52,440 bases of DNA from an uncultured Bacilli bacterium (lineage in GTDB: Bacteria > Bacillota_I > Bacilli_A > RF39 > UBA660). Location: assembly GCA_947629125.1 (NCBI GenBank), contig CANRCO010000001.1, positions 1 to 52,440 of the forward strand, read 5' to 3'. Every line of letters starts with the position of its first letter. The first letter of the stretch is position 1. The position numbers and the translations under genes were made by a program. This document shows positions 3,786-51,251 of this stretch, one piece after another. The notes under the pieces were generated by a model that saw only the letters and a program-made list of their open reading frames with translations, did no database searches and was not told the DNA's origin.

Positions 3786-3796
3786 TTTTTTACCTC

Positions 3797-5497: not shown

Positions 5498-5499
5498 TG

Positions 5500-13163: not shown

Positions 13164-13210
13164 ATTATCACTTCTAATTAAAAATTATAATATTTATTAT
13201 GAAAGGAGTC

Positions 13211-13243
13211 AACAAAACAAAAAAATTTTCTATTTCTAGAAAA
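13211..13243 (-). terminator. Weak AT-only hairpin plus T-run after the 177-aa ORF
   Basis: Stem ttttcta (13226-13232) / tagaaaa (13237-13243). On the minus strand it is followed by TTTTTTTGTTTTG. The stem is all A/T, so termination efficiency is doubtful. Confidence 0.3.
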
Positions 13244-13250
13244 ATTTTAA

Positions 13251-13784
13251 TTACTTTGTCAATTTTCTTACTTTTGCTTCAGTATCATTATTTACAATTG
13301 TAGCTGGTAAATAAGTAAAATCTGTCATACTAAGCAACCCATTTTCACCATTCATTTTTTGAACTTCAAGATAATTTTTATTATTATAAACAGTAATATT
13401 ATCACTTATATAATTATATATTCCCAGTGGAACTTCCTCTACTTTGGTATTAACATTAATTAAACCATATGTTATGCTAACTTGATCTTGCTTTCCATTA
13501 GGAAAATAATTAATTTTCATAATTTTACGATATTCTTGATTATTTTTTGCAAATATTGGATTATCACTAATTTTAGAATAACCTCTTTGTTTAATTACAC
13601 TAGTTAAATCAGTTGTTTCATCAATAGCTAAGTTGGAATATTCTTTTATAGAATTAGGATTTTTATAAGCTGTATAACAAGTAGTAGCTATCATTGCTCC
13701 AACTGCCAACGTACAAAGACAACCAGGTAAACATCCAGAAGATGCATATGTTTTACCATCATCATTATGCCAATTTTCTTTCAT
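13251..13784 (-). CDS. Hypothetical protein with an N-terminal Cys-rich hydrophobic segment
   Basis: 177 aa. The N-terminus contains SSGCLPGCLCTLAVGAMIATTCYTAY. I recognise no family. Confidence 0.6.
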   Translation of the reverse strand: MKENWHNDDGKTYASSGCLPGCLCTLAVGAMIATTCYTAYKNPNSIKEYSNLAIDETTDLTSVIKQRGYSKISDNPIFAKNNQEYRKIMKINYFPNGKQDQVSITYGLINVNTKVEEVPLGIYNYISDNITVYNNKNYLEVQKMNGENGLLSMTDFTYLPATIVNNDTEAKVRKLTK

Positions 13785-13845
13785 CTAATTTTCTCCTTTT
13801 AAAATTGCAAAACATATGCTAACAAAAAATACGCATTTTGTCAAA

Positions 13846-18227: not shown

Positions 18228-18230
18228 CTT

Positions 18231-19385: not shown

Positions 19386-19386
19386 A

Positions 19387-20445: not shown

Positions 20446-20510
20446 AACAACCTCTAACTACATAAAAATATCATATCACAAAATTTTAGGTAAATAAATA
20501 AAGTATTCAT

Positions 20511-21806
20511 CTATTTTGAATACTTTTTATTTTCATTTAATAGCCCCATAACTATATAAAATAATGGTGCTACCATAATAACACTGATATTGAAGAAAGC
20601 TTGAATTAAATAAGCTAGAAAGGCCAGAAAATAAATGTAATTTTCTTTTCTATCTTCTTTATTTTTTATATATTTAATTATTGTAAATACTAGTAAACCT
20701 AAATAAGTAATTATAGAGAAAATACCTTCGGTAATAAATTTTTGTAAATATTCATTATGAGCTTTATCAAAACATTGTCCTTTTGAACCAATACCCACAC
20801 ATATATAATTACCCTCATTTATTAAAGAAAAATTATCAATACCCATACCAGTTAAATAATATTTTGGGGCATAAGAAAGTGTTTTTTTCCAAACATATAC
20901 ACGATAATTACCTGTTTCATCAGTGATACCTTTTTTAAATATATTTTTAATTTCAATGAAATTTTTATTCATGGTATAAGTAATACGATGGTTAGCAAAT
21001 TGGTCAAAAATTAATATTAACGCAATTAATAATCCTAAAGTAGATGACCCATATAGAACTACTTTTTTAATATTATTTTTATTTATTTTAGTTAACAATG
21101 TAATGAGAATAATTAATCCAGCTGCTAGATAACAACTAGTTGTATTACCAATAATTAAACCGTAACCAAATAACAATGTTAATAAACCATAAATTATACC
21201 ATGCTTTTTATCTTTTGCTTGAAGTAATTTACCATAAACTAACATCAAACACATTAAAATATAACTTGAATAAAAGTTGGGATTACTTAATGTGCCACTA
21301 GCAAATTTAAAATGAGCTGACCAATTATCACTACGGTCATAACCTAAAATATTTTCAATTCGCAATGTTTGAATTGTTCCTAATAAAATTTGATATATAC
21401 CACTAATTATAATCGTATAAAATATAACTTTTTTTTGGTCTTTATTTAATGTAGATGCTAATAAAAAGATAAAGTAATAACTTAATATAACTAATAACCC
21501 TTCAAAACGACCTTCAGCACCATATAAAGCCATTTTACCATCAAGGGCAAATTTATATGATATATAAGCAAATATAATTAATAATAAAATAAATAAATCT
21601 TTAAAATGGATTTTATCACGATTAATTATTTTATATGTTGTGTAAAAAAATAATGCACAAAAGCCAAAACAAAATAAGCCTAAAGAAAAATAATAATAAG
21701 AAAAGTCAAAGATAATTTTAATTGTTGTACCAACACTTAAATATGCCACTAATAGTATTATTAGTAGCATATTTATAAGGTCGTTCATTTTTTTTAAACG
21801 TTTCAT
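20511..21806 (-). CDS. Wzy_C / O-antigen ligase-family polytopic membrane protein (candidate O-oligosaccharyltransferase or polymerase)
   Basis: 431 aa with many hydrophobic helices. The segment KAHNEYLQKFITEGIFS matches the H-N-x-x-L-x4-E-x-G signature of WaaL, PilO/TfpO and PglL family proteins. Its ATG (21804-21806) overlaps the TAA (21806-21808) of the restored reading frame of the last pilin gene. Confidence 0.75.
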   Translation of the reverse strand: MKRLKKMNDLINMLLIILLVAYLSVGTTIKIIFDFSYYYFSLGLFCFGFCALFFYTTYKIINRDKIHFKDLFILLLIIFAYISYKFALDGKMALYGAEGRFEGLLVILSYYFIFLLASTLNKDQKKVIFYTIIISGIYQILLGTIQTLRIENILGYDRSDNWSAHFKFASGTLSNPNFYSSYILMCLMLVYGKLLQAKDKKHGIIYGLLTLLFGYGLIIGNTTSCYLAAGLIILITLLTKINKNNIKKVVLYGSSTLGLLIALILIFDQFANHRITYTMNKNFIEIKNIFKKGITDETGNYRVYVWKKTLSYAPKYYLTGMGIDNFSLINEGNYICVGIGSKGQCFDKAHNEYLQKFITEGIFSIITYLGLLVFTIIKYIKNKEDRKENYIYFLAFLAYLIQAFFNISVIMVAPLFYIVMGLLNENKKYSK

Positions 21807-22416
21807 TAATTTGATCCTGTTGAAATGCCAATGTCTGATGAAGTGCCTAAATTTTCCAAATCAAAATATTGTCTTAAACTATTATCAGAAGTAGCATATG
21901 CATAATTACATTCCTTACTTTTAAATACATTTAGACTTCCAAGATTATACATTGTAGAACCTGACCTTTCGCCGCCCTGCGAAATATAATTAACCGTTCG
22001 ATTATTTAATTTTACTACTTTACCAACGATTTTAGTATCATTATCATTGCTAGCATCTTCACCATCTATTGCTAATTTTGAATCAGATATAAAATATATT
22101 TTATTAATTTTTCCATTAGAATCTTTATTTATTTTTACTGAGCCAAAATAACCATCCTTAGCACTTTATCATAGTAGCCTAAATCAGCAAGATATTGCAT
22201 AGAAATAATTATATAATCATATTGATTTAATTCAGCTCTACTACTATAAGCAAGTTCTGCAGCTTTAACAAGAGCTCGACCATCATCAATTAATGATTTT
22301 CTTCGTGATTGGTCAAGAATTGGTAAAACACCAACTGCTGCTATCAACATAACAATTGCTAAAATGGTAATTACGGCTAGTAATTCGATTAGTGTAAATC
22401 CTTTTGTATTATTCAT
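21806..22416 (-). pseudogene. Type IV pilin-like gene 3, interrupted by a 1-nt frameshift near 22163
   Basis: The N-terminus MNNTKGFTLIELLAVITILAIVMLIAAVGV is intact. After ..LGYYDK the annotated frame stops at 22135. The -1-nt frame instead reads AKDGYFGSVKINKDSNGKINKIYFISD...ENLGTSSDIGISTGSN* down to 21806, parallel to DGYSGSVYIEYNGG in pilin 1. Confidence 0.7.
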
Positions 22417-22430
22417 TCTCAGCCTACTTC

Positions 22431-23027
22431 CTAATCACTTACAGTTGCAAGTTCAGTAACACTAGGAATACTTCCACTAGCACCAGAATTTGTAAAGAAT
22501 ACTAAACCAGTACTTTTCATTTTTACGCCAGTATGAGTTTTTAAATAATCATATAATTTTTGACCACCACTAACTGTACTTGTATAAGCTAAAAAGGCTG
22601 TATTATACTCTGCATCAGTCTTATCATCAGATTCTCTTCGTGAATAATCTGTATTATCACCTACTGAAAGCGGTTTTCTCTTATAACCATATGTACCATC
22701 ACTTATCGAAAAATGATATTCTACTTTTTTGCCATTTTTTTCAACATGAACAGCACCGCTATAACTAGATGATTGTTTATCATAGTAACCTAAATCACTT
22801 AAAAAATTTAAACTTAAAACCAAATCATCATACTTTCGCAAAGAAGAATTTTCAGTATAAGCAAGTTCTGCAGCTTTTACTAATTCTCTACCTTCATTTA
22901 ATAAAGATTTTGCTTTTGACTTTTCAATCATTGGCAATACACCAATTGCAGCAATAAGCATTACTATACCTAAAATAGTTATTACTGCTAATAATTCGAT
23001 TAATGTAAATCCTTTACTTTTTTTCAT
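22431..23027 (-). CDS. Type IV pilin / pseudopilin-like protein 2 (prepilin N-terminal cleavage/methylation motif)
   Basis: 198 aa. MKKSKGFTLIELLAVITILGIVMLIAAIGV has the G/FTLIE class III signal with Glu5. The C-terminal tail is Ser/Thr/Gly-rich (NSGASGSIPSVTELATVSD). Confidence 0.85.
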   Translation of the reverse strand: MKKSKGFTLIELLAVITILGIVMLIAAIGVLPMIEKSKAKSLLNEGRELVKAAELAYTENSSLRKYDDLVLSLNFLSDLGYYDKQSSSYSGAVHVEKNGKKVEYHFSISDGTYGYKRKPLSVGDNTDYSRRESDDKTDAEYNTAFLAYTSTVSGGQKLYDYLKTHTGVKMKSTGLVFFTNSGASGSIPSVTELATVSD

Positions 23028-23088
23028 TTTCTAACCTACTTTCCTATTTTTAAATTTACTATAATATTTAATAAAAAATAATAATATT

Positions 23089-23658
23089 TTATAATTTTTT
23101 ATTATAAATGCTTACTTTTTTACCACCTATGGTTATACTTTGACCTTCATTTATATTACTTGTTCCAGCATATGATGAATTACCACTGTAACAAACTGCT
23201 TCATAATGTTTTGCACTTTCTTTTATTGATTTAGATAAAACATAATCTTTAGCATTTTTATCTTGCATATTATTCATATTTTGCCAAGCAGTTGCTCCAC
23301 TTTTTGTTTCATAACCAATAGTACCTATTTCACTTTTTATTGTATATTTTTTAATTAATTCACCACCATTATATTCAATATAAACACTACCAGAATAGCC
23401 ATCTTCTATACCTTTATCAAAAAAATTTTTATCATGTAACCATTCTAAAGAAATACAAACATTTTTGCCAACCATTTGTTTATTATCAGAATATGCAAGT
23501 TCAGCAGCATGAACTAATGTTTTTCCTTCATCAAATAAAGCATCATTTTTTGATTTAGTCATTACTGGTATAACTCCAATTGCAGCAATAAGCATTACTA
23601 TACCTAAAATAGTTATTACCGCTAATAATTCAATTAAAGTAAAACCTTTTTTATTCAT
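23089..23658 (-). CDS. Type IV pilin / pseudopilin-like protein 1
   Basis: 189 aa. MNKKGFTLIELLAVITILGIVMLIAAIGV. The first ~55 aa are near-identical to pilins 2 and 3; the rest is divergent. Confidence 0.85.
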   Translation of the reverse strand: MNKKGFTLIELLAVITILGIVMLIAAIGVIPVMTKSKNDALFDEGKTLVHAAELAYSDNKQMVGKNVCISLEWLHDKNFFDKGIEDGYSGSVYIEYNGGELIKKYTIKSEIGTIGYETKSGATAWQNMNNMQDKNAKDYVLSKSIKESAKHYEAVCYSGNSSYAGTSNINEGQSITIGGKKVSIYNKKL

Positions 23659-29500: not shown

Positions 29501-31837
29501 TTAATTAGTTTGATTATTCATAAATTCTAAATTTTTATATTCGGTTAATTCAACTGTATCCTTTTCACTTTTAAAACAAATATCATTATAAGTACAATTT
29601 TTACAACCTTCACAATTTTTACCAATTTGTTTAGGATTAATTTGAAATTCTGCAGCCATTATATTTTTAAATCCTTCTTTTATTTGTTTATCGACTAAAT
29701 TAATTAAATTATTAATCGTTAATTCATCTATTACTTTACTATTTGAATAAAATTCTTTAGAATTTGTTTGTTTTAAACTTTGAATCATTTTACTATCGCT
29801 ATAAGTACTATCTAACTTTTTTAAAATATCTACATTATTAATACTATAACCTTGTAATTTTAAATTGTTTTTCTTATTAGTTATTAAATCTTCTTTTGGT
29901 TTTAATAAACCATTATTTTTTAAAACATTTTGTAAATAAAAACCTGCTATATGGTGATTTTGAAATTTTGGATGATGTTTAACTAAATATAAATAAATTG
30001 GTAATTGCATCCCTATTCCATAAATTGTATTATTTAAATTAATATTCGGATTACCTGTTTTATAATCAATAATTGCTAAACTATCTTCATCATATTTAAT
30101 TTTATCAATATATCCTTTAAAGTTATTATTTTCATATGGAATATTTATTCCTTCTTCCCTTAAAGTTGATTTTAACTGGCTATATTCATCTTGATTTTTA
30201 ATTTCATTAATGATAAAAATTAATTCTTTTTTTAGTTTTTCTAAAAAGAACATTTCTTTAGCAGTAAACTTTCTATTTACTAAACTTAAGGCTTGATGCC
30301 AACTAGTATCCATATTAAAATCATCTTGATAGATATCTTTTAAAACACTATGATAAATATTACCAATATCTAAAATAAATTTATCAGTAAAAACATTTAA
30401 TTTTAAAATATTATTTAAATAATAACGAAATTGACATCGATTATAATTATCTAAACTACTATAAGATAATGTTAGATGATTTTTTAAGTATTTATTTAAA
30501 TTAATTGGATTAATTTTATGATAAGAATTATCATATTTTAAATAATTATTATTAGGATATTTTCCTAATAATAAATCTAAATTAGGATTAATTATATTAT
30601 ATTTATTATAATCATCTAAAAAAATAGCTAACTTTAGTTCATTATATAAATGACTATTAGTATATATATCATTATCTATCTTTTTAATCGGATAATTTAA
30701 ATTAGTAAAAATATTACTTAGAAATAATGGGCCATTTTCATCAGTAGTTTTATAAGATATTATTAAGTTTTTATTGTTTTGTAATTGTTTTTGATAAATT
30801 ACTAAATTATTTTGATTAATTTCTTTAGAAGTAAATAAACCTAATATTTGTTTTTGTTTATCGTTAAGATAATCTTCATCTTTTTTAATTTTAGGAAAAC
30901 TATTTTGATTAACACCCAAAACAAATAAATAATCATCATTAGTTAAATTATTATTAATAAATTCAATTTCATTTACTGCTATTTGATATTTTTTTATTGT
31001 TTGTTTAGTATTTTTTAAATCATCAATAATCATATCTTTAACTAAGTTGTAATTATCAGTCCAACTATAACGATTACAAATATTTATTATTTTATTATAA
31101 ATATCTTCAGCATCGACACTTTTAATTTGTTTTCTAACTATATCTAAAGTTTTTTTAATATCTGCTTGATAATGTAATATAAATTGTTGAACAATATTAG
31201 TACTATAAATTGTGGTATTTTCTTGTAAATTTACAGGTATATGATAAATAAAACTATATTTTTTAATTAAATTACGATAAGTATCATTTAAATTTGTTAA
31301 ATAAATATGTTTAATATCGACATTTTGTTTTAATAATTCACATATTTTATTAAAGATAAAAATTACTTCTTCTTCAGCTGTAGAAGCTTCATAAATTTCA
31401 TGAGTATAATTATTATTTAACTCTTCACTCATAAAACTTACTTTGGTAATAGTTTTTAATTTACTAATAATATTTTGCCAAAAAGAGTTATAAGGTTTAT
31501 TTTCCAAAATAATTTCATATTTTTTTAAATTATTAGAAAACAATGGATTAAAAATTAATAAATTATTATTAATTAAATCATTTTTTATAGCATATAACTG
31601 ATTTAATTTATAATCAGAATACTCTTTAGATTCAACATATATTAAATTATCTAAATAGATTTTAGCAATTTTTTTAATAACATTATATTTTTGCATAACA
31701 TAATAAATAGTTTGTTCATCATAATTAAAAATATATTCTTTTAAAAATTCTTGATATGTCATTATTTTAACATTAATCAATTGTTGAATTTTTTTTAAAT
31801 ATGTATTTTTTTGTTCTGTTAATATGAGTTTTTTCAT
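29501..31837 (-). CDS. addB: Helicase/nuclease subunit B (AddB type), compact form
   Basis: 778 aa. The C-terminal nuclease has GYIDKIKY..IIDYKTG. The Fe-S staple cysteines are present (NRCQFRYYL upstream plus CKNCTYNDIC, C-x2-C-x5-C). No Walker A is visible at the N-terminus. Confidence 0.8.
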   Translation of the reverse strand: MKKLILTEQKNTYLKKIQQLINVKIMTYQEFLKEYIFNYDEQTIYYVMQKYNVIKKIAKIYLDNLIYVESKEYSDYKLNQLYAIKNDLINNNLLIFNPLFSNNLKKYEIILENKPYNSFWQNIISKLKTITKVSFMSEELNNNYTHEIYEASTAEEEVIFIFNKICELLKQNVDIKHIYLTNLNDTYRNLIKKYSFIYHIPVNLQENTTIYSTNIVQQFILHYQADIKKTLDIVRKQIKSVDAEDIYNKIINICNRYSWTDNYNLVKDMIIDDLKNTKQTIKKYQIAVNEIEFINNNLTNDDYLFVLGVNQNSFPKIKKDEDYLNDKQKQILGLFTSKEINQNNLVIYQKQLQNNKNLIISYKTTDENGPLFLSNIFTNLNYPIKKIDNDIYTNSHLYNELKLAIFLDDYNKYNIINPNLDLLLGKYPNNNYLKYDNSYHKINPINLNKYLKNHLTLSYSSLDNYNRCQFRYYLNNILKLNVFTDKFILDIGNIYHSVLKDIYQDDFNMDTSWHQALSLVNRKFTAKEMFFLEKLKKELIFIINEIKNQDEYSQLKSTLREEGINIPYENNNFKGYIDKIKYDEDSLAIIDYKTGNPNINLNNTIYGIGMQLPIYLYLVKHHPKFQNHHIAGFYLQNVLKNNGLLKPKEDLITNKKNNLKLQGYSINNVDILKKLDSTYSDSKMIQSLKQTNSKEFYSNSKVIDELTINNLINLVDKQIKEGFKNIMAAEFQINPKQIGKNCEGCKNCTYNDICFKSEKDTVELTEYKNLEFMNNQTN

Positions 31838-31892: not shown

Positions 31893-31918
31893 CAAAGAAA
31901 AAAAGCAAAAATTGCTTT
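31893..31918 (-). terminator. Candidate terminator after the 1421-aa gene
   Basis: Stem aaagcaa / ttgcttt lies at about 31902-31918. On the minus strand it is followed by TTTTTTCTTTGG. It overlaps the stop codon. Confidence 0.45.
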
Positions 31919-34900
31919 ATTTCCATGAAGGACCTACGCCTTCGGCTATATGACAATTAGATTTATTATTAACATTACAGTTATTTAGCCATAAATTAAA
32001 TTTAAGTTTTTCATTAGTTTCATATTTATAATTACTTACATATTTACCAATTTCATTTAAAAATTCACTAGTGCATATAGCTTTTTTATAAATTACCAAA
32101 TCTGGATTGTTTTTATCACTTTCATTAGCTTTACGCCAATCAATTACATCGCCACTTTCATTATAACTAACTGCAATATCCATACAATTTAATTCAGTAT
32201 CTTGATTGGATTTACGAATATTTTCAATAGCATTTGCATCTAAAGTAAAGGAATATTCTGGTTCTTTTGAGTATGTATATTCTTCACCACTTTGTTTAGC
32301 TTTTTTAGTTATTTGTTCTTGCATCTTATCATATTTGTAACTATTAAAATAGGTTGAATATTTATTAATACCATTTGGTGATGGATTATTTAAAGATACC
32401 ACACTAAATTTAACATTTAAATCAGTTTTAGTGCTACTATAAGTACAAGCTAAAGATGATACGCAACCAACTTCACAACTAGGACATACTTCTAATGAAT
32501 CATCATTATCATTTTTACAAACATTACTACTTTCATCATAGTTATCTTTACAACAACTCTTGCCACTTTTATCAACTTTCAAATCTGTACTACAACAAAC
32601 ATTGTTTTTAGAATCAGTAGCATAAATATTGGTTGCACAATCATCACTACTATCAGAGCTCGTATTAAAATTACAAAGTGGTGCATCATCTTTACAACAT
32701 TCTTTATTATCACAACAAGCACCATTTTTATCCATACTTAATTCACAAATGCCACAAGTATTATTTTCTTTTATTAAATCTACATCACAAGATTTAGCAT
32801 AATTACTATAATTTATTTCAATTGGAGAATAATAATTTTTACTTGTTCGATAATAACGATTATTTATTTTATAATAATCATAATAACTATCTTTACAACA
32901 TGTTAATTTTTCTTTTGTTGTATCAGAACATTCTCTAGTTTTTTCATTATATAATTCTATACAACATTCTTGTCCATACCGATCTGTTTTTTTAGATGCA
33001 CATGGTTTTTTCTCGCATTTATAATTATTGGCATAATAAACATCACTACAACATGTCTCACCACTAGCATCTTCAACTGTGTAACTTCCTTTTTTACATG
33101 GACCATCACCAGTATCTCTTTCATTAACATCGCTAATTGTATAAGTACATACATACTCATATGATTCTTGTATAGCATTGTTTTTATTACTTATTAATCG
33201 GCCAGTTTCATTGGTATCATAAAATTTACCTAAATTATCAATATGTAATTTAAAGTAATGTTCACTACCATTTTCAACATCGGCAGATACTGGTAAACCA
33301 TCTATTAAATCTTCTTCCGTAGTTGTACTATCAGCTAAAGTTGGTTTATCATTTTTTATTGTGAAATACTTAGTTGGACTATATAAAGCTGTAGTATTTT
33401 GAGTTAATTTAACATAATTATTTTTAATTATTTTAATATCACTTATACTACTGAAATCTGTAGCACAATTAGTACAATCAATATTTTTTAAATTTTCTAA
33501 ATATAAATCATGTTTTATTTTATAACTGTTATCAGTGTACTCTTTTTCTTCTAATGAACCATTTGTACAACTGCTAAATCGCATTTCTACAGACCTAGTA
33601 TCCAAAGGTGCATTACACTCCCATAATTTTACAGTATTTTGCGTTGTTTGTTTATCCATTAAGTCTGTTTTGTTTTTAATAACATCAAAATAATCATCTT
33701 CATATTCATAAGTTACATCTGGCATTATTATACCTTTAGTTTCACCGTCATTATTTTCATCACTAATATAATCATTCGCCCAATCAACACATGATGTAGC
33801 TTGAGTTTTTAAATTTTTAAGATAATTTAATGAACCAGTATAATTATCTGTAATATTTTCATATCCAAAAACTTTACCATCAAAATAATCTCTTAATACC
33901 TCTAAATCTGCTACTACAGCATCATATTCAGAGCCTTTTAATATATTATTAAGTTTTCCATCACCAGCTATATGTTGTTTGCCCATTCCCATATAATAAT
34001 AAATATCAAAATCATCTGTTTTTTTACTACAACTTATATTATTACTCCTTTTATTATAGCTACATTCATCATATTCAATATCATTATAAATTACACAATA
34101 ACGTCCTTTATCACAACTTTTACCAGTTGAGGAAAAAACTTTATTTAGAACATTATAAAGATTATAATATTCGACAAATTCTTCAATTTCATTATCTAAA
34201 TCTTCATCGCTAATTTTATCACTATCAACTTTTTCATAACAAGTCATTGTTCCTGAAATTTTTACTAAATATTTTCGATTTTTATATAAATAGTTATAAG
34301 CTTTTGCAGTATCTCTTTTCGATAAATTATAATTAAATTTATAATCTTCTTTACAATAAACAGTACAATAATTATTATTTTTAAAGCCTTTTAAAACATA
34401 AGAATTACCATTTTCATCAGTAGCTTCTTTTTCTTTTTGAATAAAACATGTATATGGATTACTTGGCCCAGTAATAGTACTTGTAGAATAACTATTAGAA
34501 CATTGAGTTGCTAAAGAGTTTTCTGTTTTACAACTTCCAGCACAATATTCTTTATAAGCATAATTATCTTCTTCAAAATATTTACTATTTTCATAAGTTG
34601 AGCAACAACCATTAGAAAAGAAATTTTGAGCTGAAACTTGTTTACCATTTAGTTTATATTTATAATTTGAACTATCACCTTCAATTAAACATTGATTAGC
34701 TAAATAGGGAAATTGAAATTCAAAATTATAATTTTTAGTTGCAGCACCACCGGTAAAATTAACTATCATTCTAGCGGAATTTACTAGTACTTCATCAGTA
34801 GCAACATTAGCATTTTGATTTAAAACTAATAAACGATTGTTATCATTTTTATTAATATAAGGAATACTTATATATCCAGTATATTTTTTACCAGCATAAT

Positions 34901-36182
34901 TACTAATATCTCCTTTGATTGTAATTGTATAAGTTATTTTTGTTGTATTTTTATCTTTATCTGTAGTTCTTCTCGTTTCTTCTATTTCACAAGTAAATTT
35001 ACTATTATTATCATTTTTATCTGAACAATCAATAGTTGGTATAGCATTATCATCAATGGTAATAATACCATTATCATATGAAAGAACATAAGTTGTTTTA
35101 GCTTCAAAATTTGATAATTCATAGTTACTTACAGTATAAGAACCATCACTCTTTTTGCTACTAGTGTTGCTGCCATTTTGCGTAAATGTCCAATAAGAAT
35201 CATCAACTTCATTGCCAGTTCTATCAACAAATTTGCTTTTAATTTCCGCTGGATTTAATTTAAGAAAATAAACATCATCGGCATATTTATGTGCTGTTTG
35301 AAACATTTGAAAAGCCGTTTTTAAATAATCATCGTATCCGGTGTGAGGAATTGTTGGGTCACTACAAAATATCCAACCACTTTCACTATCAAGAGCATAA
35401 CTTTTTTTACTACAATCGAAATTTGGAGTAGCATGTTGTTGAACTGTGTAATTACCATATAATTTTCTAAAATCCATAAAAGCTTCATGACGTTTATAAT
35501 AACTTATATTAGGAGAAGTATTACATAAAGCTTTTTCACCATTTGTACCACAATCTACAGCATAATCATCAAGTTGCCCAACATCATAATAATATGCTAA
35601 AAATCTTGTAGCTAATTCAGCTACTATATTATCAGCTTCTTTATCAGCATTTTCTCTTTTCATAATTGCAGCATAAGTATTATTATCACCAATAAAACCA
35701 TATAAATAATACATTGCTAAATCAAAACGTCGAACATTTTCATATTTTCCAACTGGATCATAATTTGTAGGGTCTAATTCTCTGGTACACCACCATTTAT
35801 CAACATTAGTTACATTTGCAGAGTTATTTTTTAATATCGCCTTCCCTGGGTCAATATTACTAGCATATAGTTCATTACCACTATTTCTATCATTATAACG
35901 AAATTTTACAAAATCATATTGATAAATAGGAGATGCTTCATAAGCTCCATTCTTTTTTAATATTCCAGGAGTATATGCTCCATTATATTGTAAAATATTA
36001 TGTTTAACAGTATCAAAAGTATCATTAGCACCTTTATTAATAATTCCTGTAGAATAAGTAAGATAAAAAGGGTCCGGATAATGTTCACAAACGCTACCTT
36101 CACCCAAAGCTTTTACAGAATTTAAACCTATAAAAAGCATTAGAAATGTTAATATAAATAATTTATTATATATTTTTTTCAT
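31917..36182 (-). CDS. Large secreted Cys-rich protein with CC-containing repeats (function unknown)
   Basis: 1421 aa. Sec-type signal MKKIYNKLFILTFLMLFIGLNSVKALG. There is no LPXTG motif and no C-terminal TM. Dozens of Cys are concentrated near the C-terminus. Confidence 0.9.
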   Translation of the reverse strand: MKKIYNKLFILTFLMLFIGLNSVKALGEGSVCEHYPDPFYLTYSTGIINKGANDTFDTVKHNILQYNGAYTPGILKKNGAYEASPIYQYDFVKFRYNDRNSGNELYASNIDPGKAILKNNSANVTNVDKWWCTRELDPTNYDPVGKYENVRRFDLAMYYLYGFIGDNNTYAAIMKRENADKEADNIVAELATRFLAYYYDVGQLDDYAVDCGTNGEKALCNTSPNISYYKRHEAFMDFRKLYGNYTVQQHATPNFDCSKKSYALDSESGWIFCSDPTIPHTGYDDYLKTAFQMFQTAHKYADDVYFLKLNPAEIKSKFVDRTGNEVDDSYWTFTQNGSNTSSKKSDGSYTVSNYELSNFEAKTTYVLSYDNGIITIDDNAIPTIDCSDKNDNNSKFTCEIEETRRTTDKDKNTTKITYTITIKGDISNYAGKKYTGYISIPYINKNDNNRLLVLNQNANVATDEVLVNSARMIVNFTGGAATKNYNFEFQFPYLANQCLIEGDSSNYKYKLNGKQVSAQNFFSNGCCSTYENSKYFEEDNYAYKEYCAGSCKTENSLATQCSNSYSTSTITGPSNPYTCFIQKEKEATDENGNSYVLKGFKNNNYCTVYCKEDYKFNYNLSKRDTAKAYNYLYKNRKYLVKISGTMTCYEKVDSDKISDEDLDNEIEEFVEYYNLYNVLNKVFSSTGKSCDKGRYCVIYNDIEYDECSYNKRSNNISCSKKTDDFDIYYYMGMGKQHIAGDGKLNNILKGSEYDAVVADLEVLRDYFDGKVFGYENITDNYTGSLNYLKNLKTQATSCVDWANDYISDENNDGETKGIIMPDVTYEYEDDYFDVIKNKTDLMDKQTTQNTVKLWECNAPLDTRSVEMRFSSCTNGSLEEKEYTDNSYKIKHDLYLENLKNIDCTNCATDFSSISDIKIIKNNYVKLTQNTTALYSPTKYFTIKNDKPTLADSTTTEEDLIDGLPVSADVENGSEHYFKLHIDNLGKFYDTNETGRLISNKNNAIQESYEYVCTYTISDVNERDTGDGPCKKGSYTVEDASGETCCSDVYYANNYKCEKKPCASKKTDRYGQECCIELYNEKTRECSDTTKEKLTCCKDSYYDYYKINNRYYRTSKNYYSPIEINYSNYAKSCDVDLIKENNTCGICELSMDKNGACCDNKECCKDDAPLCNFNTSSDSSDDCATNIYATDSKNNVCCSTDLKVDKSGKSCCKDNYDESSNVCKNDNDDSLEVCPSCEVGCVSSLACTYSSTKTDLNVKFSVVSLNNPSPNGINKYSTYFNSYKYDKMQEQITKKAKQSGEEYTYSKEPEYSFTLDANAIENIRKSNQDTELNCMDIAVSYNESGDVIDWRKANESDKNNPDLVIYKKAICTSEFLNEIGKYVSNYKYETNEKLKFNLWLNNCNVNNKSNCHIAEGVGPSWK

Positions 36183-36191
36183 GAACCCACC

Positions 36192-36908
36192 CTATTTTTT
36201 CTTTCTTTTCATTCGCTTACGAATAACAATTATTGTGATTACTAAAATTATAACAACTAAACTGATTATTCCAATTAAAATATATTTAAAGTTATTAGCT
36301 TGTTTTTGTTCTTTTGTTGTTTTATCTTTTTGCTGTTCATCTTTATATTCATTAACTTTATTAAAAAATGTATCTTCATCAAAATCGCTAGTTACATAAC
36401 GATTACAATAATATAACTTATCTAATAAGCCATCACAAATAATATAACTAGAATTAACATTATATTTAGGAGTTGTTAAATATAGTGTTTTTAAATTATT
36501 TATTTGACAACTATCAGTACTTAAAGAAATGTTAAATGTATAAGTATTTACTTTATTTTGAGAAAGAAAATTTAAATCATAAATTTTTGTAGATATTTTT
36601 CCTTGATTGTTTCTATCATAACTAAATAATTCATTGTGATTATTTTTTTCAGAACGCATAGTAACTACCATACCTTCACTTAAATTTTCAATTGTTATAT
36701 TTAATACACGATTTTTGGCATAAATAACCTCATCATCAACTTGAGAAATAATTGTATTTAAATCATCTTCAATTGTTATATCATAATTAACTTTAACTTT
36801 ATTTACTAAAGCATCATATTTAACTTTATCGCTATTAGAACACTCCGCATAAGCTACTATCGGTAAAAAAATAAAAAGTAAAATAAGTAAACTATATCGT
36901 TGTTTCAT
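36192..36908 (-). CDS. Signal-peptide protein with a C-terminal TM anchor and basic tail; partner of the 1421-aa protein
   Basis: 238 aa. N-terminus MKQRYSLLILLFIFLPIVAYA. C-terminus IGIISLVVIILVITIIVIRKRMKRKKK. Its stop lies 9 nt upstream of the next start. Confidence 0.8.
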   Translation of the reverse strand: MKQRYSLLILLFIFLPIVAYAECSNSDKVKYDALVNKVKVNYDITIEDDLNTIISQVDDEVIYAKNRVLNITIENLSEGMVVTMRSEKNNHNELFSYDRNNQGKISTKIYDLNFLSQNKVNTYTFNISLSTDSCQINNLKTLYLTTPKYNVNSSYIICDGLLDKLYYCNRYVTSDFDEDTFFNKVNEYKDEQQKDKTTKEQKQANNFKYILIGIISLVVIILVITIIVIRKRMKRKKK

Positions 36909-37022: not shown

Positions 37023-38135
37023 ATGGAAATAATCGGAATAATTTGTGAATATAATCCTTTTCATAATGGTCATATTTACCATTTAAAAAAAATTAAAGAA
37101 ATGTATCCTCATTCTTTAATAATTTTAGTAATGAGTGGTTATTTTACTCAAAGAGGAGAAATATCTTTATTAACTAAAGAACAAAAAGCTAAAATTGCCC
37201 TAAATAATAATATTGATATCGTAATTGAATTACCAACTTTATTAACTGTTCAAAGTGCCGATATATTTGCAAAAAATGCTCTATATTTATTAAATAAATT
37301 AAAGGTTAATAAAATTATTTTTGGTAGTGAATGTAATGATGTAAAAAAATTAGAAAACATAGTTGATATCGAATTAAATGACCCCGAGTATAATAATCGA
37401 ATTAAAAAGTATTTAGCCGAAGGCTATAATTACCCAACTAGCATGAGTAAAGCTTTAAATACTAAAAGTATCACTACTCCCAATGATTTACTAGGAATTT
37501 CTTACATTAAAGAAATTAAAAAAAATAATTATGACATTAAATATGAAACAATTAAAAGAACTAGTAATTTCCACGATTTAAGTTCAAATGATTTAATAAT
37601 TAGTGCTAGTAATATACGCAGTAAATTAATAGATAAAAAAGATATTAAACCTTATTTACCTAGCGAATCTTTAAATAATTTAGTAACTATTAACCAAGAT
37701 ATATTTTTTACTCTTTTAAAGTATAATATTATAACCAATTCTAATTTAGCTAATAATTTAATCGTTGATGAAGGTATTCATAATAAATTAATTAAATGTG
37801 TAAATAAAGCTTCTTCTTTAACTGAACTAACTGATTTAATTAAAAGTAAACGATACACTTATAATCGAATTAATCGTATGTATATTCATATTCTTTTAAA
37901 TATATTAAAAAGTGATATAACAACAATTGATTATCTAAAAATCTTAGGTTTTAATACCCAAGGTAAAAAATATTTAAATAAACTAAAAAAAGAATTAGAT
38001 ATTAGTTTAATACCTAATTATGATTCAAAAATATATCAAACAGAATTAAAATCTAGTTTAATTTATGATTTAATAACTAATGCAAATACTTATCAATATG
38101 AAAAGCAAAATAAACCAATTATTTTTGACATTTAG
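37023..38135 (+). CDS. tmcAL: tRNA(Met) cytidine acetate ligase (TmcAL, UPF0348/YlbM family)
   Basis: 370 aa. GIICEYNPFHNGHIYHLKKIKE is the characteristic nucleotidyltransferase HxGH-type N-terminus of this family. Confidence 0.8.
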   Translation: MEIIGIICEYNPFHNGHIYHLKKIKEMYPHSLIILVMSGYFTQRGEISLLTKEQKAKIALNNNIDIVIELPTLLTVQSADIFAKNALYLLNKLKVNKIIFGSECNDVKKLENIVDIELNDPEYNNRIKKYLAEGYNYPTSMSKALNTKSITTPNDLLGISYIKEIKKNNYDIKYETIKRTSNFHDLSSNDLIISASNIRSKLIDKKDIKPYLPSESLNNLVTINQDIFFTLLKYNIITNSNLANNLIVDEGIHNKLIKCVNKASSLTELTDLIKSKRYTYNRINRMYIHILLNILKSDITTIDYLKILGFNTQGKKYLNKLKKELDISLIPNYDSKIYQTELKSSLIYDLITNANTYQYEKQNKPIIFDI

Positions 38136-41578: not shown

Positions 41579-43238
41579 TTAAATAGATAATTGAAATGGA
41601 GCTTCTTTAGAACCATCACCTGCAGTAATTTTGACATTTGATTTTAGATATAAAACCGGTCGCACTAGAAAACTATTCGAATTAGCGAAAACATAACCTA
41701 CATGACCATCATAATCTACACGATAGGCAGAATACCCTAAATCCGCAGATGGAGTTATCATCCATTGTTCATATTTTTCATTCCATAACCAATCTTTTAT
41801 ATAGCATTTTTCTAAGGTATTCATATAATTATATAATGTTGTATTTAAACATTCTTCCCTTGTTTTAGTTTCACCACCGTTTGTTGCAAATCCATAATCA
41901 CTTGGATACATTAAACCAATATAGCCTGTCCAAGTTATTAGTCTTGATAATCCATTACTACTATAAATATTCTTACTTCGTTCTACATCATAATATTGTT
42001 TTGCTATTAGCATTTGATAATCGTATTCACTATTATCGTGTTTATTTGGACCTCCTAAATAGAATAGAGCTTTATCAATGTATTTTTTACTCTCATCAGT
42101 TAAACCATTACTACTAAAATCACTTTGTTCTTCTGTAAAATTGGTTTTAGTTGCTTGAGCTGGCTTATAGCCTTTTGTTCTATTAAAATAACTTCCTATT
42201 CCTTTATAGATTGTTTGACTTTTTCCATCTTTTGCTACTGTTACTGCTCCATCTTCACTTATTGAATAGTTTGATTTATCTGTTTCTTTCCAATTCTCTT
42301 GTACTACATCTTTAGGATTTAGCATCATCATGAGTTGACTATCTGTCCAATCATTACTTCCATTATTGTTTGTTGAAGAACCTACTCCGTTTTGTTTACT
42401 ATCCCATTTAAATTCTCCTAATAATTCTGCTCTTATTAGTTTAACACGACTTTCTTTTTTGTCTTTACCATCTTCGACATTATTCATTATTCCAATAATA
42501 AGCCATTTCTCTCCATTGAAGTCAACATAGTTGTTTGGGTCTGCTCCGATATATCTCAAGTTGTTATCGCTTGTTTCATCATAAGCTAATTCTTCATTAT
42601 CTTCACTGATGATTCTAATGTAATCACTTGCTAGTATATTCTCTCTTTTGATACTATCTATCTCTATTTTACTTTCAAAGGTATTATTTTGTTCTAATTC
42701 ATTAAAACTAGTATTTTCATCTAGCCAGATTTTTAAATTTAATTGCTTACTATTATTAGCATCTATTTTTACTGTTGTTAAATGTTTGCCTATATTATAA
42801 TCTTTATTTGTTGTTTCTCTATCTAATAAATTATTTAAATTATTTGGTTCAATTATTTTTTGATTGTTATATAGTAATGTTGCTCTAATATTCTTTTCAT
42901 TTAATGTATTGTTTTTATTTATATCTAAGTTTACTTCCACATATTCTTCATGATTACAATTATTTTGAATTGTAAATGTATAACCTTCTTGTTTTAAACC
43001 ATCAACATCTGGTGTTTGGTAGGCATTCTCTATATTTATATTTGTTCCTTCAGTTACATCTAGTTTTAAACACCCACTACTTATTTTATTTATACTTGTT
43101 TGTTCTTGTGTTGTACTCCATAGGGCATAACTTATTCCACTTATTATTAGTACTCCTACTAATACTCCCAAACAAGCTAATATCTTCGGGTACTTTTGTT
43201 TATTAAAATACCCCCCCCCGATTTACGTTATGATTCAT
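41579..43238 (-). CDS. Secreted two-domain protein, paralog D; the ATG (43236-43238) is out of frame with the body because of a C9 tract
   Basis: The ORF as sequenced is 41579..43171 with a TTG-initiated call. The upstream ATG frame reads MNHNVNRGGVF*. With one C fewer it reads MNHNVNRGGYFNKQKYPKILACLGVLVGVLIISGISYALWSTTQ..., a complete signal peptide like the other paralogs. Family motifs present: IIGIMNNVEDG, IGLMYPSDYGFATNGG, VRPVLYLKSNVKITAGDGSKEAPF. Confidence 0.8.
43211..43219. repeat. Homopolymeric tract C9 (G9 on the coding strand)
   Basis: It is read directly: positions 43211-43220 are ccccccccc followed by g. I noticed no other G/C run longer than 5 anywhere in the window. Confidence 0.95.
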
Positions 43239-43264
43239 AGTTTCTTACCTCTCTATCTTTTTTT

Positions 43265-43292
43265 ATTATAACAAAATATTACTTTATAGCAA
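43265..43292 (-). promoter_or_regulatory. Candidate promoter with extended -10 for paralog D
   Basis: On the minus strand: TTGCTA (43287-43292), a 16-nt spacer ending in TGT, then TATAAT (43265-43270), giving TGTTATAAT. The RBS AGAGAGG lies 8-9 nt before the ATG at 43238. Confidence 0.5.
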
Positions 43293-43337
43293 AGAAAAAA
43301 TAAAGAACTTTTGACATCTTTTGTCGAAGCTCTTTAC
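43293..43337 (-). terminator. Candidate terminator insulating paralog D from the upstream remnant
   Basis: An imperfect long hairpin has outer stem aaagaactt / aagctcttt and inner stem gaca / tgtc (43302-43335). On the minus strand it is followed by ATTTTTTCTTTG. Confidence 0.45.
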
Positions 43338-43346
43338 TTTAATTTT

Positions 43347-43898
43347 TTAATCTATTATATCCAAATGACTACCTATATCGTTTGAATTTGGTAATTTATT
43401 TTGTATTTCTTTTGCCAATTTATCAAGTATTTTATACTCACTAACTCCAACTGGCTTATTAATAAATTTCAATGTATAATCTACTATTTTATTACTTTTA
43501 AAATACTATCTGACCATCCTTCTTCAAGGCATTTATGCATATACCATTTACGTATTTCCTTATCTTTAACTTTTTGCATTAAAGTAATGTTTCCAAGGTA
43601 ATTGTGCAACCAGTTGCACAAATTCATCATTATCATACTTATATTCATTATAAAAAGATTTCATGTATTTCAAATTACGAACCGAAAATCCTTTTAAATT
43701 GGGAAAAGATATTTTTAACTCCATTGCAACATTATCAATAAATTTATTTCCCCAATTACTATTTTCTTCTAAAGTTTTACCAATATTATAATATAAATTA
43801 ACCAACTTTTTATTTGCATCATGCATAATTTCAAACTGTGTGTTAATTATTGTATTTTTAATACTATTTGCTACTTCTTGAAATGATTTGTCTATCAT
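43347..43898 (-). pseudogene. DUF1016 / YhcG-type PD-(D/E)XK nuclease pseudogene (frameshifts plus internal deletion)
   Basis: The 110-aa ORF carries WGNKFIDNVAMELKISFPNLKGFSVRNLKYMKSFY...VQLVAQLPWKHY, the DUF1016 N-terminal domain pattern. A second frame continues KVKDKEIRKWYMHKCLEEGWSDSIL. A third frame reads VDYTLKFINKPVGVSEYKILDK...LPNSNDI, like the extreme C-terminus of the family. The ~150-aa nuclease core is absent. Confidence 0.6.
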
Positions 43899-44102
43899 GA
43901 TGTATCTCCTTTGTATGATATATTATAACAAATAAGTAATAAATTTTGTATCAATTACATAAATATTTCCTAAAAATTAATTCAAAGTTTTGAGTTAATA
44001 TCTATAAAACCTTATAAAACTTAGTAATACACAAAAATGAAAGAGTTTCTGCTATCTTTTCAAAGTTTTGGTTTAAAATTCTGCAGTAAGGTTGTAATAA
44101 TT

Positions 44103-44171
44103 ATGAAAGAAAAATATTTCTATCAAATTATTATCTTATTTTTATTATTAATAATTATAATTTTTAAATGA
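44103..44171 (+). CDS. Speculative 22-aa hydrophobic peptide ORF (MKEKYFYQIIILFLLLIIIIFK)
   Basis: ATG at 44103 and TGA at 44169-44171. A weak AAGG lies about 12 nt upstream. The same frame stays open back to an ATG at 44037 (44 aa). Such I/L/F/K ORFs arise easily by chance in AT-rich DNA. Confidence 0.2.
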   Translation: MKEKYFYQIIILFLLLIIIIFK

Positions 44172-44199
44172 GAAAACCACCTAATTTAGTTTAGGTGGT
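44166..44199 (-). terminator. Candidate lon terminator
   Basis: 9-bp stem accacctaa (44176-44184) / ttaggtggt (44191-44199). On the minus strand it is followed by TTTCTCATTT. Confidence 0.45.
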
Positions 44200-44203
44200 A
44201 CAC

Positions 44204-44250
44204 AACGTAGTCACCTGAGCTTATCTCAGCTGTTTCTACGTTTTTATTAT
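44204..44250 (+). terminator. Compound GC-richer hairpin plus T-run on the plus strand
   Basis: Outer stem aacgtag (44204-44210) / ctacgtt (44236-44242) and inner stem ctgag (44215-44219) / ctcag (44225-44229), followed by TTTTTATTAT. Confidence 0.4.
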
Positions 44251-44307
44251 ATGTTATTTTCATTTTTTTATCAACAGTAAATTAAATCAAATTTTTATAC
44301 TGTTAAC

Positions 44308-46623
44308 TTATCTATTAAATATATCGTTATATATTTCTACATAATTATTTACTTCAATAATTTCAATATTATTTTTAATTTCTTCTGGTACTTCATCTAA
44401 ATCAGAATGATTTGACTGAGGAATATAAACTTTTTTAATATGAGAATTATAAGCTCCAATTAATTTTTCTTTTAAACCTCCGATTTTCATTACTTTACCC
44501 TTTAGCGAAATTTCACCTGTCATCGCAATTGTATTAGGAACAATCTTATTTAAAGCTAAACTAATTAATGTTGTTGTAATTGCTATACCTGCACTAGGTC
44601 CATCTTTTTTAATAGCTCCTTCAGCAAAATGTAAATGTATATCTTTATTATCAAAGAAATCTTTCTTTATTTTATATTTTTGGGCATTAGCTTTAAGATA
44701 ACTCAAAGCTACTTTAATACTTTCTTCTAATACCTTACCTAAATTACCAGTTAAAATTATTTTACCTTTACCAGAATAAATACATGTTTCAATTAATAAA
44801 ACACTACCTCCAACTGGCGTATAAGCTAGGCCATTAGCAATTCCCGCATCAACAAAAGTTTCATTTTCTTTAACTAAATATTTTTCATTACCTAAATACT
44901 TAACTACTTTTTCTTTAGTTATAATCACTTTATTTTTTTCTTTAAATTCATTACTAGTAACAATTTTTCTAACAATAGTTTTTAATAATCTTTCTAATTC
45001 TCTTACACCAGCTTCTTTAGTATAATCATTAATTGTTTTTTCAATAGCATCACCTTTAAAAACAATTTCGTTTTTATTAACTAAATAATCATGATATATT
45101 TTAGGAATTAAATGTTTTTTGGCTATATCCATTTTTTCAAAAATTGTATAACTAGATAATTCAATTATTTCTAAACGGTCTAATAATGCTGGAGGAATAT
45201 TATCTTTTTCATTAGCTGTTAAAATAAAGAATACATGCGATAAATCAAAAGATTCCTCAATATAATTATCAATAAACATACTATTTTGTTCAGGGTCTAA
45301 AATATCTAATAAAGCACTAGCTGGATCACCATGATAATCTTTAACCATTTTATCTACTTCATCAATTAAAAACACGGGATTAGCTGTTCCACATTTTTTT
45401 ATTCCTTGAATTATTTTACCAGGACTAGCTCCAATATAAGTTTTACGATGCCCTAATAATTCACTAGTATCACTTAAACCTCCAACACTCATTTTATAAA
45501 ATTCTTTATTTAAACTTTTAGCAATAGCAATAGCTAAAGATGTTTTACCAACTCCACTTGGCCCTACTAAACAAATTATTGGACTTTTAACATGAGGATT
45601 TCTTAAATTAATACCCACATGTTCAATAATTCTCTCTTTTATTTTTTCTAAACCATAATGACTTTTATCCAAACTAATTTTTATCTTATTTATATTTTTT
45701 TCATCTTTACTATATGTTTTCCAAGGTAAGTTTAAAACCCAATCTAAATAATTATAAATAATTGTTGATTCAGGGCTAATTTCACTAGTAAATTCATATT
45801 TTTTAATTTCATTATAGAATTTTTGTCTAGTTTTAGTATTTATTTTTAATTTATCTAATTTTTTAAAGTATGATTCAATTTCTTGGTCTTTAAAATCAAC
45901 TTCACCCAATTCTTTTTTTAATTGCTTCATTTTCTCTTTTAAAATGAAATCTTTTTGGGTTTGTTCTAATTCATCTCTTAAAGCATCTTCTAATTTATCA
46001 TCTAAAGCAATAACTTCTAATTCAACATTTAAATCTTGAATTAAATTTTTAGCACGAATTATAGCATTTATTTCTTGCATATAATTTAATTTTTTCTCAA
46101 ATGATAATGGTAAGAAATTAGTTATTGTATCAGTTAAAACATCTAAATCTTGTAAATCTTTAACTTTATTTAAAATACTATTAGGTATTGTAGAAGATGA
46201 TTTAATATATCTATCTAAAACTTCATTTAATTTTTTAATATTTGCTTGTTGTTCTACTATATTATATTTAGGAAGAGTAATATCTTTAATGGAACACTGT
46301 AATATTCTATTATCATTTTTTAACGAAAAATAATTATCAATAGCTACTCTTTTTAAACCTTTTATTTTTATTGATATTTTACCATCAGGTAATTCTATTT
46401 TACTTTTTAATTTACCAATAACTCCTATTACAGGTAAATCATTGATATCAGGTTCTTCTTCCATTTGGTCTTTGGGACAAATAATTAATAATTTCCCATT
46501 ATATTCTTTAAAAGATAGAGCCAATATTTTTTTACTTAGAGCATTACTAAGTTCGATTTTCAATTCTTGATTCGGTAAGAGAACTAAGTTTTTAAGTAAC
46601 ATTACAGGTAAGATATAATTCAA
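44308..46623 (-). CDS. lon: ATP-dependent Lon protease (LonA)
   Basis: 771 aa. It has a LON N-domain, Walker A GPSGVGKTS and the protease Ser motif DGPSAGIA. A TTG start is preceded by a strong GGGAGGTG RBS. Confidence 0.95.
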   Translation of the reverse strand: MNYILPVMLLKNLVLLPNQELKIELSNALSKKILALSFKEYNGKLLIICPKDQMEEEPDINDLPVIGVIGKLKSKIELPDGKISIKIKGLKRVAIDNYFSLKNDNRILQCSIKDITLPKYNIVEQQANIKKLNEVLDRYIKSSSTIPNSILNKVKDLQDLDVLTDTITNFLPLSFEKKLNYMQEINAIIRAKNLIQDLNVELEVIALDDKLEDALRDELEQTQKDFILKEKMKQLKKELGEVDFKDQEIESYFKKLDKLKINTKTRQKFYNEIKKYEFTSEISPESTIIYNYLDWVLNLPWKTYSKDEKNINKIKISLDKSHYGLEKIKERIIEHVGINLRNPHVKSPIICLVGPSGVGKTSLAIAIAKSLNKEFYKMSVGGLSDTSELLGHRKTYIGASPGKIIQGIKKCGTANPVFLIDEVDKMVKDYHGDPASALLDILDPEQNSMFIDNYIEESFDLSHVFFILTANEKDNIPPALLDRLEIIELSSYTIFEKMDIAKKHLIPKIYHDYLVNKNEIVFKGDAIEKTINDYTKEAGVRELERLLKTIVRKIVTSNEFKEKNKVIITKEKVVKYLGNEKYLVKENETFVDAGIANGLAYTPVGGSVLLIETCIYSGKGKIILTGNLGKVLEESIKVALSYLKANAQKYKIKKDFFDNKDIHLHFAEGAIKKDGPSAGIAITTTLISLALNKIVPNTIAMTGEISLKGKVMKIGGLKEKLIGAYNSHIKKVYIPQSNHSDLDEVPEEIKNNIEIIEVNNYVEIYNDIFNR

Positions 46624-51175: not shown

Positions 51176-51251
51176 TGGTAGTCTGTACGGGGTTTGAACC
51201 CGTGTATATATGCTTGAGAGGCATACGTGTTAACCACTTCACCAACAGACC
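51176..51251 (-). tRNA. tRNA-Glu (anticodon CUC)
   Basis: The minus-strand sequence is GGTCTGTTGGTGAAGTGGTTAACACGTATGCCTCTCAAGCATATATACACGGGTTCAAACCCCGTACAGACTACCA. It folds as a cloverleaf. The acceptor is 7 bp with G1-U72. The anticodon stem is TATGC/GCATA with loop C-T-CTC-A-A. The T arm is ACGGG-TTCAAAC-CCCGT, and CCA is encoded. The overall sequence is very similar to Bacillus-type tRNA-Glu. Confidence 0.8.

Follow-up and report, generated by a model that had tools for sequence, protein, structure and literature searches.

A candidate slipped-strand switch: a G9 tract in the leader of a secreted-protein gene from an uncultured Bacilli bacterium

Does a run of nine guanines at the start of a secreted-protein gene act as an ON/OFF switch, or does it mark a gene that has been lost? 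The question is raised by contig CANRCO010000001.1 of an uncultured Bacilli bacterium (positions 1 to 52,440, 52,440 nucleotides (nt), analysed as a whole and hereafter called the window), in which the gene designated paralog D has such a run between its ATG and its body. The initial annotation, made from the sequence alone, proposed that this copy is phase-variable and currently OFF. Our analysis shows that the tract is real and strongly non-random, that ±1 changes in its length gate the translation of an otherwise intact secreted-protein gene and that its present state, G9, is out of frame and hence 'currently OFF' by sequence. We put the probability that the tract is a slipped-strand (simple-sequence) contingency locus, at present in its OFF state, at roughly 0.6. 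The elements of the locus are listed below in the order in which the minus strand is read.

43265–43292, minus strand: match to a sigma-70-type promoter (TTGCTA, 16-nt spacer, TGtTATAAT with the extended −10 TG; 10/12 consensus matches)
43248–43254, minus strand: Shine–Dalgarno-like AGAGAGG, read from the sequence, its GAGG ending 9 nt before the ATG
43236–43238, minus strand: ATG start of the full-length (ON) frame; the in-frame relative P0002 opens with the homologous MNYNINRGGYF
43204–43238, minus strand: leader open reading frame (ORF) of 11 codons plus a TAA stop (43206–43204), MNHNVNRGGVF*, the OFF product at G9
43211–43219, minus strand: G9 homopolymer (C9 on the plus strand), the proposed slippage tract, codons 7–9 of the ATG frame
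43172–43210, minus strand: segment between the tract and an internal TTG, read in the body frame as YFNKQKYPKILAC, which forms the basic n-region of the signal peptide
41579–43171, minus strand: body of paralog D, 530 codons beginning at the internal TTG and running to the stop; its product is identical to database protein P0001

From its start codon, the minus strand reads ATG AAT CAT AAC GTA AAT C GGGGGGGGG TAT TTT AAT AAA CAA AAG TAC CCG AAG ATA TTA GCT TGT TTG GGA. The C9 run that the initial annotation placed at 43211–43219 (G9 on the coding strand) is present, and 19 nt separate the ATG (43238–43236) from it; the tract begins at nt 20 of the ORF, the second base of codon 7, so that 'seven codons after an ATG' was slightly loose. 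Translating the locus in silico at tract lengths of 7 to 12 bore out the predicted reading frames. With nine residues the ATG frame ends after 11 codons (MNHNVNRGGVF*), while G8 and G11 give uninterrupted ORFs of 552 and 553 amino acids (aa), both with a normal signal peptide; G7, G9, G10 and G12 are out of frame, with products of 11–20 aa. The peptide encoded by 43172–43210 (YFNKQKYPKILAC) is read in the body frame only at G8 or G11, and the corresponding stretch is in frame in P0002. The first canonical start in the body frame is the TTG at 43171–43169, from which alone, as had been claimed, the 530-aa body can be reached at G9. The body itself comprises the hydrophobic h-region of the signal peptide with a G-I-S-Y-A-L-W motif, a beta-sandwich N-domain and a DUF6273-like C-domain, and its 530 codons run without interruption in a genome that is rich in stop codons.

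The expression signals attributed to the gene were also found by direct reading, the upstream minus strand having the order TTGCTA-(16 nt)-TGTTATAAT-...-AGAGAGG-TAAGAAACT-ATG. The AGAGAGG ribosome-binding site (RBS) lies where it had been described, and the extended −10 promoter is present with its TG at 10 of 12 consensus positions. A promoter scan returned 23 promoter-like sites in the region against 21.7 in shuffled sequences; as there is no excess, 43265–43292 is to be taken as a consensus match only, without evidence of function. No Shine–Dalgarno sequence precedes the internal TTG (43171).

A nine-residue G tract is out of keeping with the composition of this DNA. The window has a GC content of 23.6 %, and a count of all runs agreed with the initial annotation that it holds no other G/C run longer than five; the next longest are six C5 runs, with no G5. 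A G8 pattern was expected 0.01 times per dinucleotide-preserving shuffle, and the observed count was reached in 0/100 shuffles. Codon usage points the same way: in the ORFs of the window CGG makes up 4.1 % of Arg codons and GGG 6.8 % of Gly codons, giving a probability of about 1.9e-4 for CGG GGG GGG where Arg-Gly-Gly is encoded, and GGGGGG occurs at none of 40 Gly-Gly dipeptides counted in ORFs of the minus strand. The rarity of such runs, the shuffles and the codon usage together indicate that the tract is not a by-product of coding. The locus has four of the properties by which a phase-variable simple-sequence repeat (SSR) locus is recognised, namely over-representation relative to base composition and codon usage (0.01 per shuffle; 1.9e-4), a G/C homopolymer long enough for hypermutability (about 7–8 or more; here G9), a position at which ±1 unit switches expression (552/553 aa against 11–20 aa) and a gene that is otherwise intact (530-codon body, promoter match and RBS).

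The quality of the assembly can be judged from the other long homopolymers. The window contains 22 A8/T8 runs, 20 of which lie inside ORFs, and none of these 20 breaks the frame; the assembly is therefore without systematic homopolymer indels, and the G9 is probably not an assembly artefact.

Paralog D is one of several related genes in the window, the other copies being the following.

2172–3785: paralog A
3797–5497: paralog B
5500–7266: paralog C
51309 onward: fifth copy, which runs off the end of the window, its signal peptide lying outside the view

The tandem A, B and C (2172–7266) and the fifth copy are 65–72 % identical at the DNA level, and near-identical DNA repeats between the in-window paralogs, which would be a sign of recent gene conversion, were not found. 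The statement that an in-frame D reproduces the signal-peptide architecture of 'four other paralogs' has to be corrected, as only three other N-termini (A, B and C) are visible.

Closer relatives of D were found in the databases. Eight proteins (P0002–P0008 and P0121) share N-terminal regions of about 270 residues that are about 90 % identical to D, while their C-terminal halves are divergent and mosaic. P0002 is annotated in frame through a near-identical leader (MNYNINRGGYFNKQKYPK) and opens MNYNINRGGYFNKQKYPKMLACLG, sharing with D the leader, the Arg-Gly-Gly and the basic n-region. The remaining seven have truncated starts and intact bodies of 487–550 aa: P0003, P0005, P0006, P0007 and P0121 are annotated from the exact TTG used by the window ORF, and P0004 and P0008 start two or three codons past it. 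Over nine family members including D, the tally is thus one in frame and eight truncated. Since the upstream ATG is called when it is in frame (P0002), the truncated starts are most simply explained by an ATG that is out of frame, and since the TTG is not conserved as the called start (P0004 and P0008), a dedicated initiation codon at this position is argued against. We infer from protein annotations that the truncated relatives are disabled by G tracts of their own, of differing length. Eight of nine out of frame is compatible with random tract lengths, for which two-thirds would be expected (P(≥8/9) about 0.14).

For the PolA protein encoded on the contig, no relative exceeds 66 % identity, and at 90 % it forms a cluster of one; given this isolation, relatives known from NCBI only are most simply regarded as paralogs located elsewhere in this assembly, on other contigs, and the close relatives of D are probably paralogs within one genome. 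Scanning genome contigs for the relatives' DNA yielded only a 30 %-identical locus (L001) from rumen Bacilli. JGI metagenomes, scanned once for a protein profile and once for a degenerate DNA pattern (G6+YFNKQKYP), gave no match, and a scan of viral contigs for relatives was empty. A protein search with the N-terminal 240 aa failed to recover even the known relatives and is uninformative.

Immediately upstream of paralog D lies a further gene, which is part of the context and not of the switch.

43347–43898, minus strand: decayed DUF1016 (YhcG-like) gene, matching PF17761 (E value 5e-25) in its N-terminal part only; three-frame translation shows a frameshift and an internal deletion

This remnant is located between lon and paralog D. 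Its N-terminal 110 aa are intact; after a frameshift near 'WKHYFNAKS*' come the fragment KVKDKEIRKWYMHKCLEEGWSDSILK, read in another frame, then an internal deletion and what is left of the C-terminus.

A second sequence of the locus was recovered by a look-up with the 110-aa ORF just upstream of D. ENA contig L002 (ERZ27249158, NODE_34050; 1,579 bp, coverage 2.26) aligns over positions 1–1579 to window positions 44600–43020, with 100 % identity over 1,449 nt and then 12 differences in the last 130 nt. The identical stretch spans the 3′ end of lon, the DUF1016 remnant, the promoter match, the ATG and a G9. L002 leaves the window sequence about 60 nt downstream of the tract, and its last 49 codons match P0003 exactly, with 4–9 of the 37 compared positions differing from every other family member. 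Two origins of the junction are conceivable: the assembler may have passed from one family member to another through a leader that they have in common, giving a chimera, or the members may truly have recombined. The 2× coverage inclines us to the chimera, for which the P0003 locus would need an identical leader after its tract, in frame with the P0003 body; under the alternative, gene conversion would have placed a body of the P0003 type at the lon-linked locus in some cells. In both cases L002 joins the leader to the P0003 body, so that a second family member is tied to the same leader and tract in the OFF configuration. A further ENA contig, L003 (ERZ27249167, coverage 1.87), indicates the same strain at about 2× in sibling samples. 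In L003 (2494–2530, against window 5035–4977), paralog B has a deletion of about 22 nt that yields two ORFs, plus one mismatch; there is no homopolymer at this position, and the deletion is a low-coverage artefact or a real variant.

How would the switch work? We propose that slipped-strand mispairing at replication shifts the tract by ±1. At tract lengths of 3n+2 (G8 or G11), translation begun at the ATG next to the promoter would run through the basic n-region (NRGGYFNKQKYPK), the hydrophobic core and the 530-aa body, producing a secreted or surface protein with two domains, beta-sandwich and DUF6273-like (ON). At G9 the ATG frame stops after 11 codons, and the body would be reached only from a TTG with neither a Shine–Dalgarno sequence nor a charged n-region, leaving expression OFF or strongly reduced. 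With at least nine close relatives that share a common 5′ half, differ in the 3′ half and appear to be mostly out of frame, the population probably expresses only a subset of copies at a time. The hypermutability and reversibility of the tract are what we infer here; the slippage mechanism itself is not new.

The proposal of a phase-variable gene that is currently OFF therefore stands as regards a real and non-random tract, an intact gene gated by it, a G9 that is out of frame and the annotations of the relatives, whereas a change in tract length was not observed; we regard 'phase-variable' as a plausible and well-supported reading, which the close relatives strengthen at the level of the family. 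Several points weigh against slipped-strand switching. The tract is G9 in both the window and L002, with no length polymorphism between the two sequences, and L002, at about 2× coverage and possibly sharing reads with the NCBI assembly (a possible co-assembly), corroborates G9 without being an independent population sample. The G tracts of the relatives are deduced from protein start sites only, exact look-ups of the hypothetical ON forms found them absent from the collection, and the decay of the neighbouring DUF1016 gene shows that gene decay occurs at this locus.

Some of these observations would suit a fixed frameshift pseudogene, in which a +1 insertion in an ancestral G8 (Arg-Gly-Gly) disabled a gene that is now decaying, its tract perhaps slippery but without selected switching. 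G9 in both available sequences of the locus, the clearly decayed gene next door and the truncated annotation of most relatives, possibly a family in decay, can all be read in this way. We nevertheless consider it unlikely, because neither the 530-codon body nor any of the seven other truncated relatives (487–550 aa) shows a second lesion and the promoter match and RBS are intact. Eight copies independently disabled at one position yet otherwise intact are what reversible switching predicts, not decay, and what the improbable codon choice of the tract encodes is retained, at the peptide level, in the in-frame P0002. A miscalled length, with a true majority of G8, an intact gene and G9 as a consensus error, has in its favour that 9-mer homopolymers are error-prone on most platforms and that the sequence is a single base away from an intact gene. 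This we find improbable: the L002 assembly also has G9 (though it may share reads), all 20 ORF-internal A8/T8 runs are in frame and the truncation signature recurs in seven relatives. A true G8 would in any case still be hypermutable, changing the current state and not the nature of the element.

The tract could also be a stable G9 that is bypassed by transcriptional slippage or +1 ribosomal frameshifting, or the 11 codons could form a regulatory leader ORF with reinitiation at the TTG about 32 nt downstream. Long homopolymers are, as is generally known, slippage sites for polymerases and ribosomes, the leader stop is close to the TTG, and with eight of nine family members out of frame or truncated this might be the normal state. 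As to the features of a programmed +1 frameshift, the slippery G run is present and the out-of-frame layout is frequent among the relatives, though not universal (P0002 is in frame); however, nothing that would stimulate frameshifting is evident: an ordinary GUA follows the run, with no adjacent stop and no Shine–Dalgarno-like element noted. The TTG has no Shine–Dalgarno sequence and is not the annotated start in P0004 and P0008, its product would be without the basic n-region present in every distant homologue and P0002 shows that an in-frame DNA state exists, all of which make decoding of a stable G9 highly improbable in our view.

Two other routes to variable expression were considered and rejected. 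An invertible promoter (inverton) is not supported, as we found no promoter-flanking inverted repeats and only short, imperfect AT-rich inverted matches within 42900–44400. A diversity-generating retroelement (DGR), an idea prompted by the DUF6273 literature, found no support either: the window has no near-identical template/variable repeat pair and no recognisable reverse transcriptase ORF, most of its ORFs not having been scanned against family libraries. Other simple-sequence repeats of note were absent from the 52-kb window.

What would the switch turn on? Paralog D is predicted to be a secreted or surface protein with two domains, a beta-sandwich and a DUF6273-like module. Its body returned no sequence match in Pfam (at E ≤ 1), NCBIfam or the PDB. 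An AlphaFold model built with 50 homologues reached a mean predicted local distance difference test (pLDDT) score of 86.6, and its only significant PDB fold match was entry 9qa6, the Thomasclavelia ramosa IgA peptidase (E value 6.7e-7, 356 columns). The N-terminal domain of that protein is DUF6273, and it is probably to this domain that the match belongs. The DUF6273 family (PF19789) gave weak matches in 17/50 family members (best E value 6e-4), with D itself below any threshold; by the Pfam criterion D is not a DUF6273 protein, and the structural match to 9qa6 suggests remote homology only. The N-terminal 200 residues of D form a beta-sandwich in the model, with generic structural neighbours only. 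An identity with TasA/camelysin (SipW-processed) proteins was rejected, since no Pfam, NCBIfam or PDB sequence match supports it and the fold search is unsupportive (N-domain against the TasA-like AbpA, 7ueg: E value 7.5e-3, TM-score about 0.3). The G-x-S-Y-A-L-W motif presumably resembles that of TasA-like proteins, a lead that does not amount to TasA membership.

The family to which D belongs has at least 1,592 database members, and its N-termini are uniform: in more than 100 distant homologues a Met is followed by a Lys/Arg-rich stretch, then by a hydrophobic core and G-x-S-Y-[AS]-x-W. A second subfamily from NCBI/ENA (P0012, P0013, P0018, P0019, P0023, P0026, P0027, P0074 and P0106) shares the C-terminal part of D, at about 52 % identity over 64 % of the query, and opens differently, with MSSLKKFDYRIKDNRKRNIF and then a transmembrane segment. 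From these sequences, different leaders thus seem to be combined with the DUF6273-like module. One relative of the D family, P0020, carries a prepilin N-methylation domain (PF07963).

A wider arrangement can be imagined in which nine or more copies within one low-GC Bacilli genome each have a poly-G-gated leader, a conserved 5′ module and a divergent DUF6273-like 3′ module, the bodies being exchanged by recombination, as the joining of the lon-linked leader and G9 to the P0003 body in L002 would suggest. Such a combination of ON/OFF switching with cassette shuffling would amount to antigenic or adhesin variation resembling opa or pilC together with pilS, in a commensal Gram-positive-type gut bacterium. 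We offer this family-wide scheme tentatively and hold it to be doubtful as a whole.

Among known systems, a close parallel is provided by Campylobacter jejuni, whose genome has a GC content of about 30 %. The modal length of its polyG/C tracts is nine, and high switching rates have been measured for a G8 and a G9 tract (PMC3401435); SSR loci in general mutate 100 to 10,000 times above the basal rate (PMC11868660). Shared features are an AT-rich genome in which G/C homopolymers are otherwise absent, a tract within the 5′ coding part of a surface-related gene and a length of nine, the C. jejuni mode; the present genome, too, is likely to hold several genes with such tracts. The present host is, by contrast, an uncultured and unrelated low-GC Bacilli-type organism, its switching is proposed from sequence where that of C. 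jejuni is known by measurement and its product is a beta-sandwich plus DUF6273-like protein, not a glycan-modifying enzyme. In Neisseria, pilC has a poly-G in its signal-peptide coding region, and opa genes have CTCTT repeats in the leader-peptide region. As at the present locus, the repeat falls within the part of a surface-protein gene that encodes the signal peptide, and its number sets the frame; opa genes moreover form a multigene family whose members could each switch on their own, as may be the case here. The differences are that the host described here is Gram-positive-type, that the proteins are unrelated and that the opa repeat is a pentamer.

Gardnerella nanH3 has a poly-C tract of 8–14 by its signal-peptide region, with length heterogeneity shown experimentally, and at out-of-frame lengths automated annotation starts downstream and drops the signal peptide (bioRxiv 10.1101/2020.09.16.300947). 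P0001 and its relatives bear the same annotation signature, and in both cases a G/C homopolymer is found at a secreted or cell-wall protein. The nanH3 tract, however, lies about 100 nt into the ORF, past the signal peptide, whereas that of paralog D is in the n-region, 19 nt after the ATG, and nanH3 is a single gene with shown heterogeneity, whereas D belongs to a gene family and both sequences of its locus have G9. With DUF6273 (PF19789) proteins such as ThomasA, the T. ramosa IgA peptidase, D shares the fold match to 9qa6 and, through 17/50 of its relatives, weak PF19789 matches. DUF6273 also appears in the literature in connection with hypervariable and DGR-targeted proteins, e.g. the phage 'tentaclins'. 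D differs from ThomasA and the tentaclins in lying below the Pfam threshold and having no peptidase domain, and neither a reverse transcriptase nor a DGR was seen in the window.

If slipped-strand switching at paralog D is correct, it would carry contingency loci into commensal Gram-positive-type bacteria, by way of an uncultured and extremely AT-rich Bacilli lineage of gut or rumen type; the documented cases of homopolymer-driven phase variation come mainly from a small number of cultured pathogens. It would also offer a handle on the function of a very large uncharacterised family of secreted proteins (>1,500 members) and would flag a systematic annotation error by which truncated proteins without a signal peptide are recorded.

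Elsewhere in the window, A8 runs on the coding strand at 14999–15006, 21788–21795, 16563–16570, 31789–31796 and 37085–37092 lie 3–62 nt after start codons, all in frame. The genes bearing them include, judging from their translations, a glycosyltransferase-like ORF (13846–15009) and a multi-pass membrane ORF (20511–21806), and where A8 tracts lie early in cell-surface genes, they too could be prone to slippage in a genome as AT-rich as this. A module at 12111–20445 is duplicated: 19394–20476 is 69 % identical to 12114–13193, 18486–19232 matches 14104–14856 and 17353–17483 matches 15746–15876. Its ORFs look radical-SAM-like, glycosyltransferase-like and asparagine-synthase-like in translation, resembling two diverged cassettes of the surface-polysaccharide type.

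At 22245–23658 on the minus strand, two tandem genes resemble type IV pilins or pseudopilins (KGFTLIELLAVITILGIVMLIAA N-termini), with a third related segment at 22245–22433. A 1,421-aa ORF on the minus strand (31917–36182) has a signal-peptide-like N-terminus, a very Cys-rich C-terminal half and no Pfam match, and after it comes a 238-aa ORF (36192–36908) that has a signal peptide and, at its C-terminus, a transmembrane anchor. The only tRNA called by ARAGORN, a tRNA-Glu with anticodon CTC, lies at 51176–51251 on the minus strand, directly downstream of the fifth paralog.

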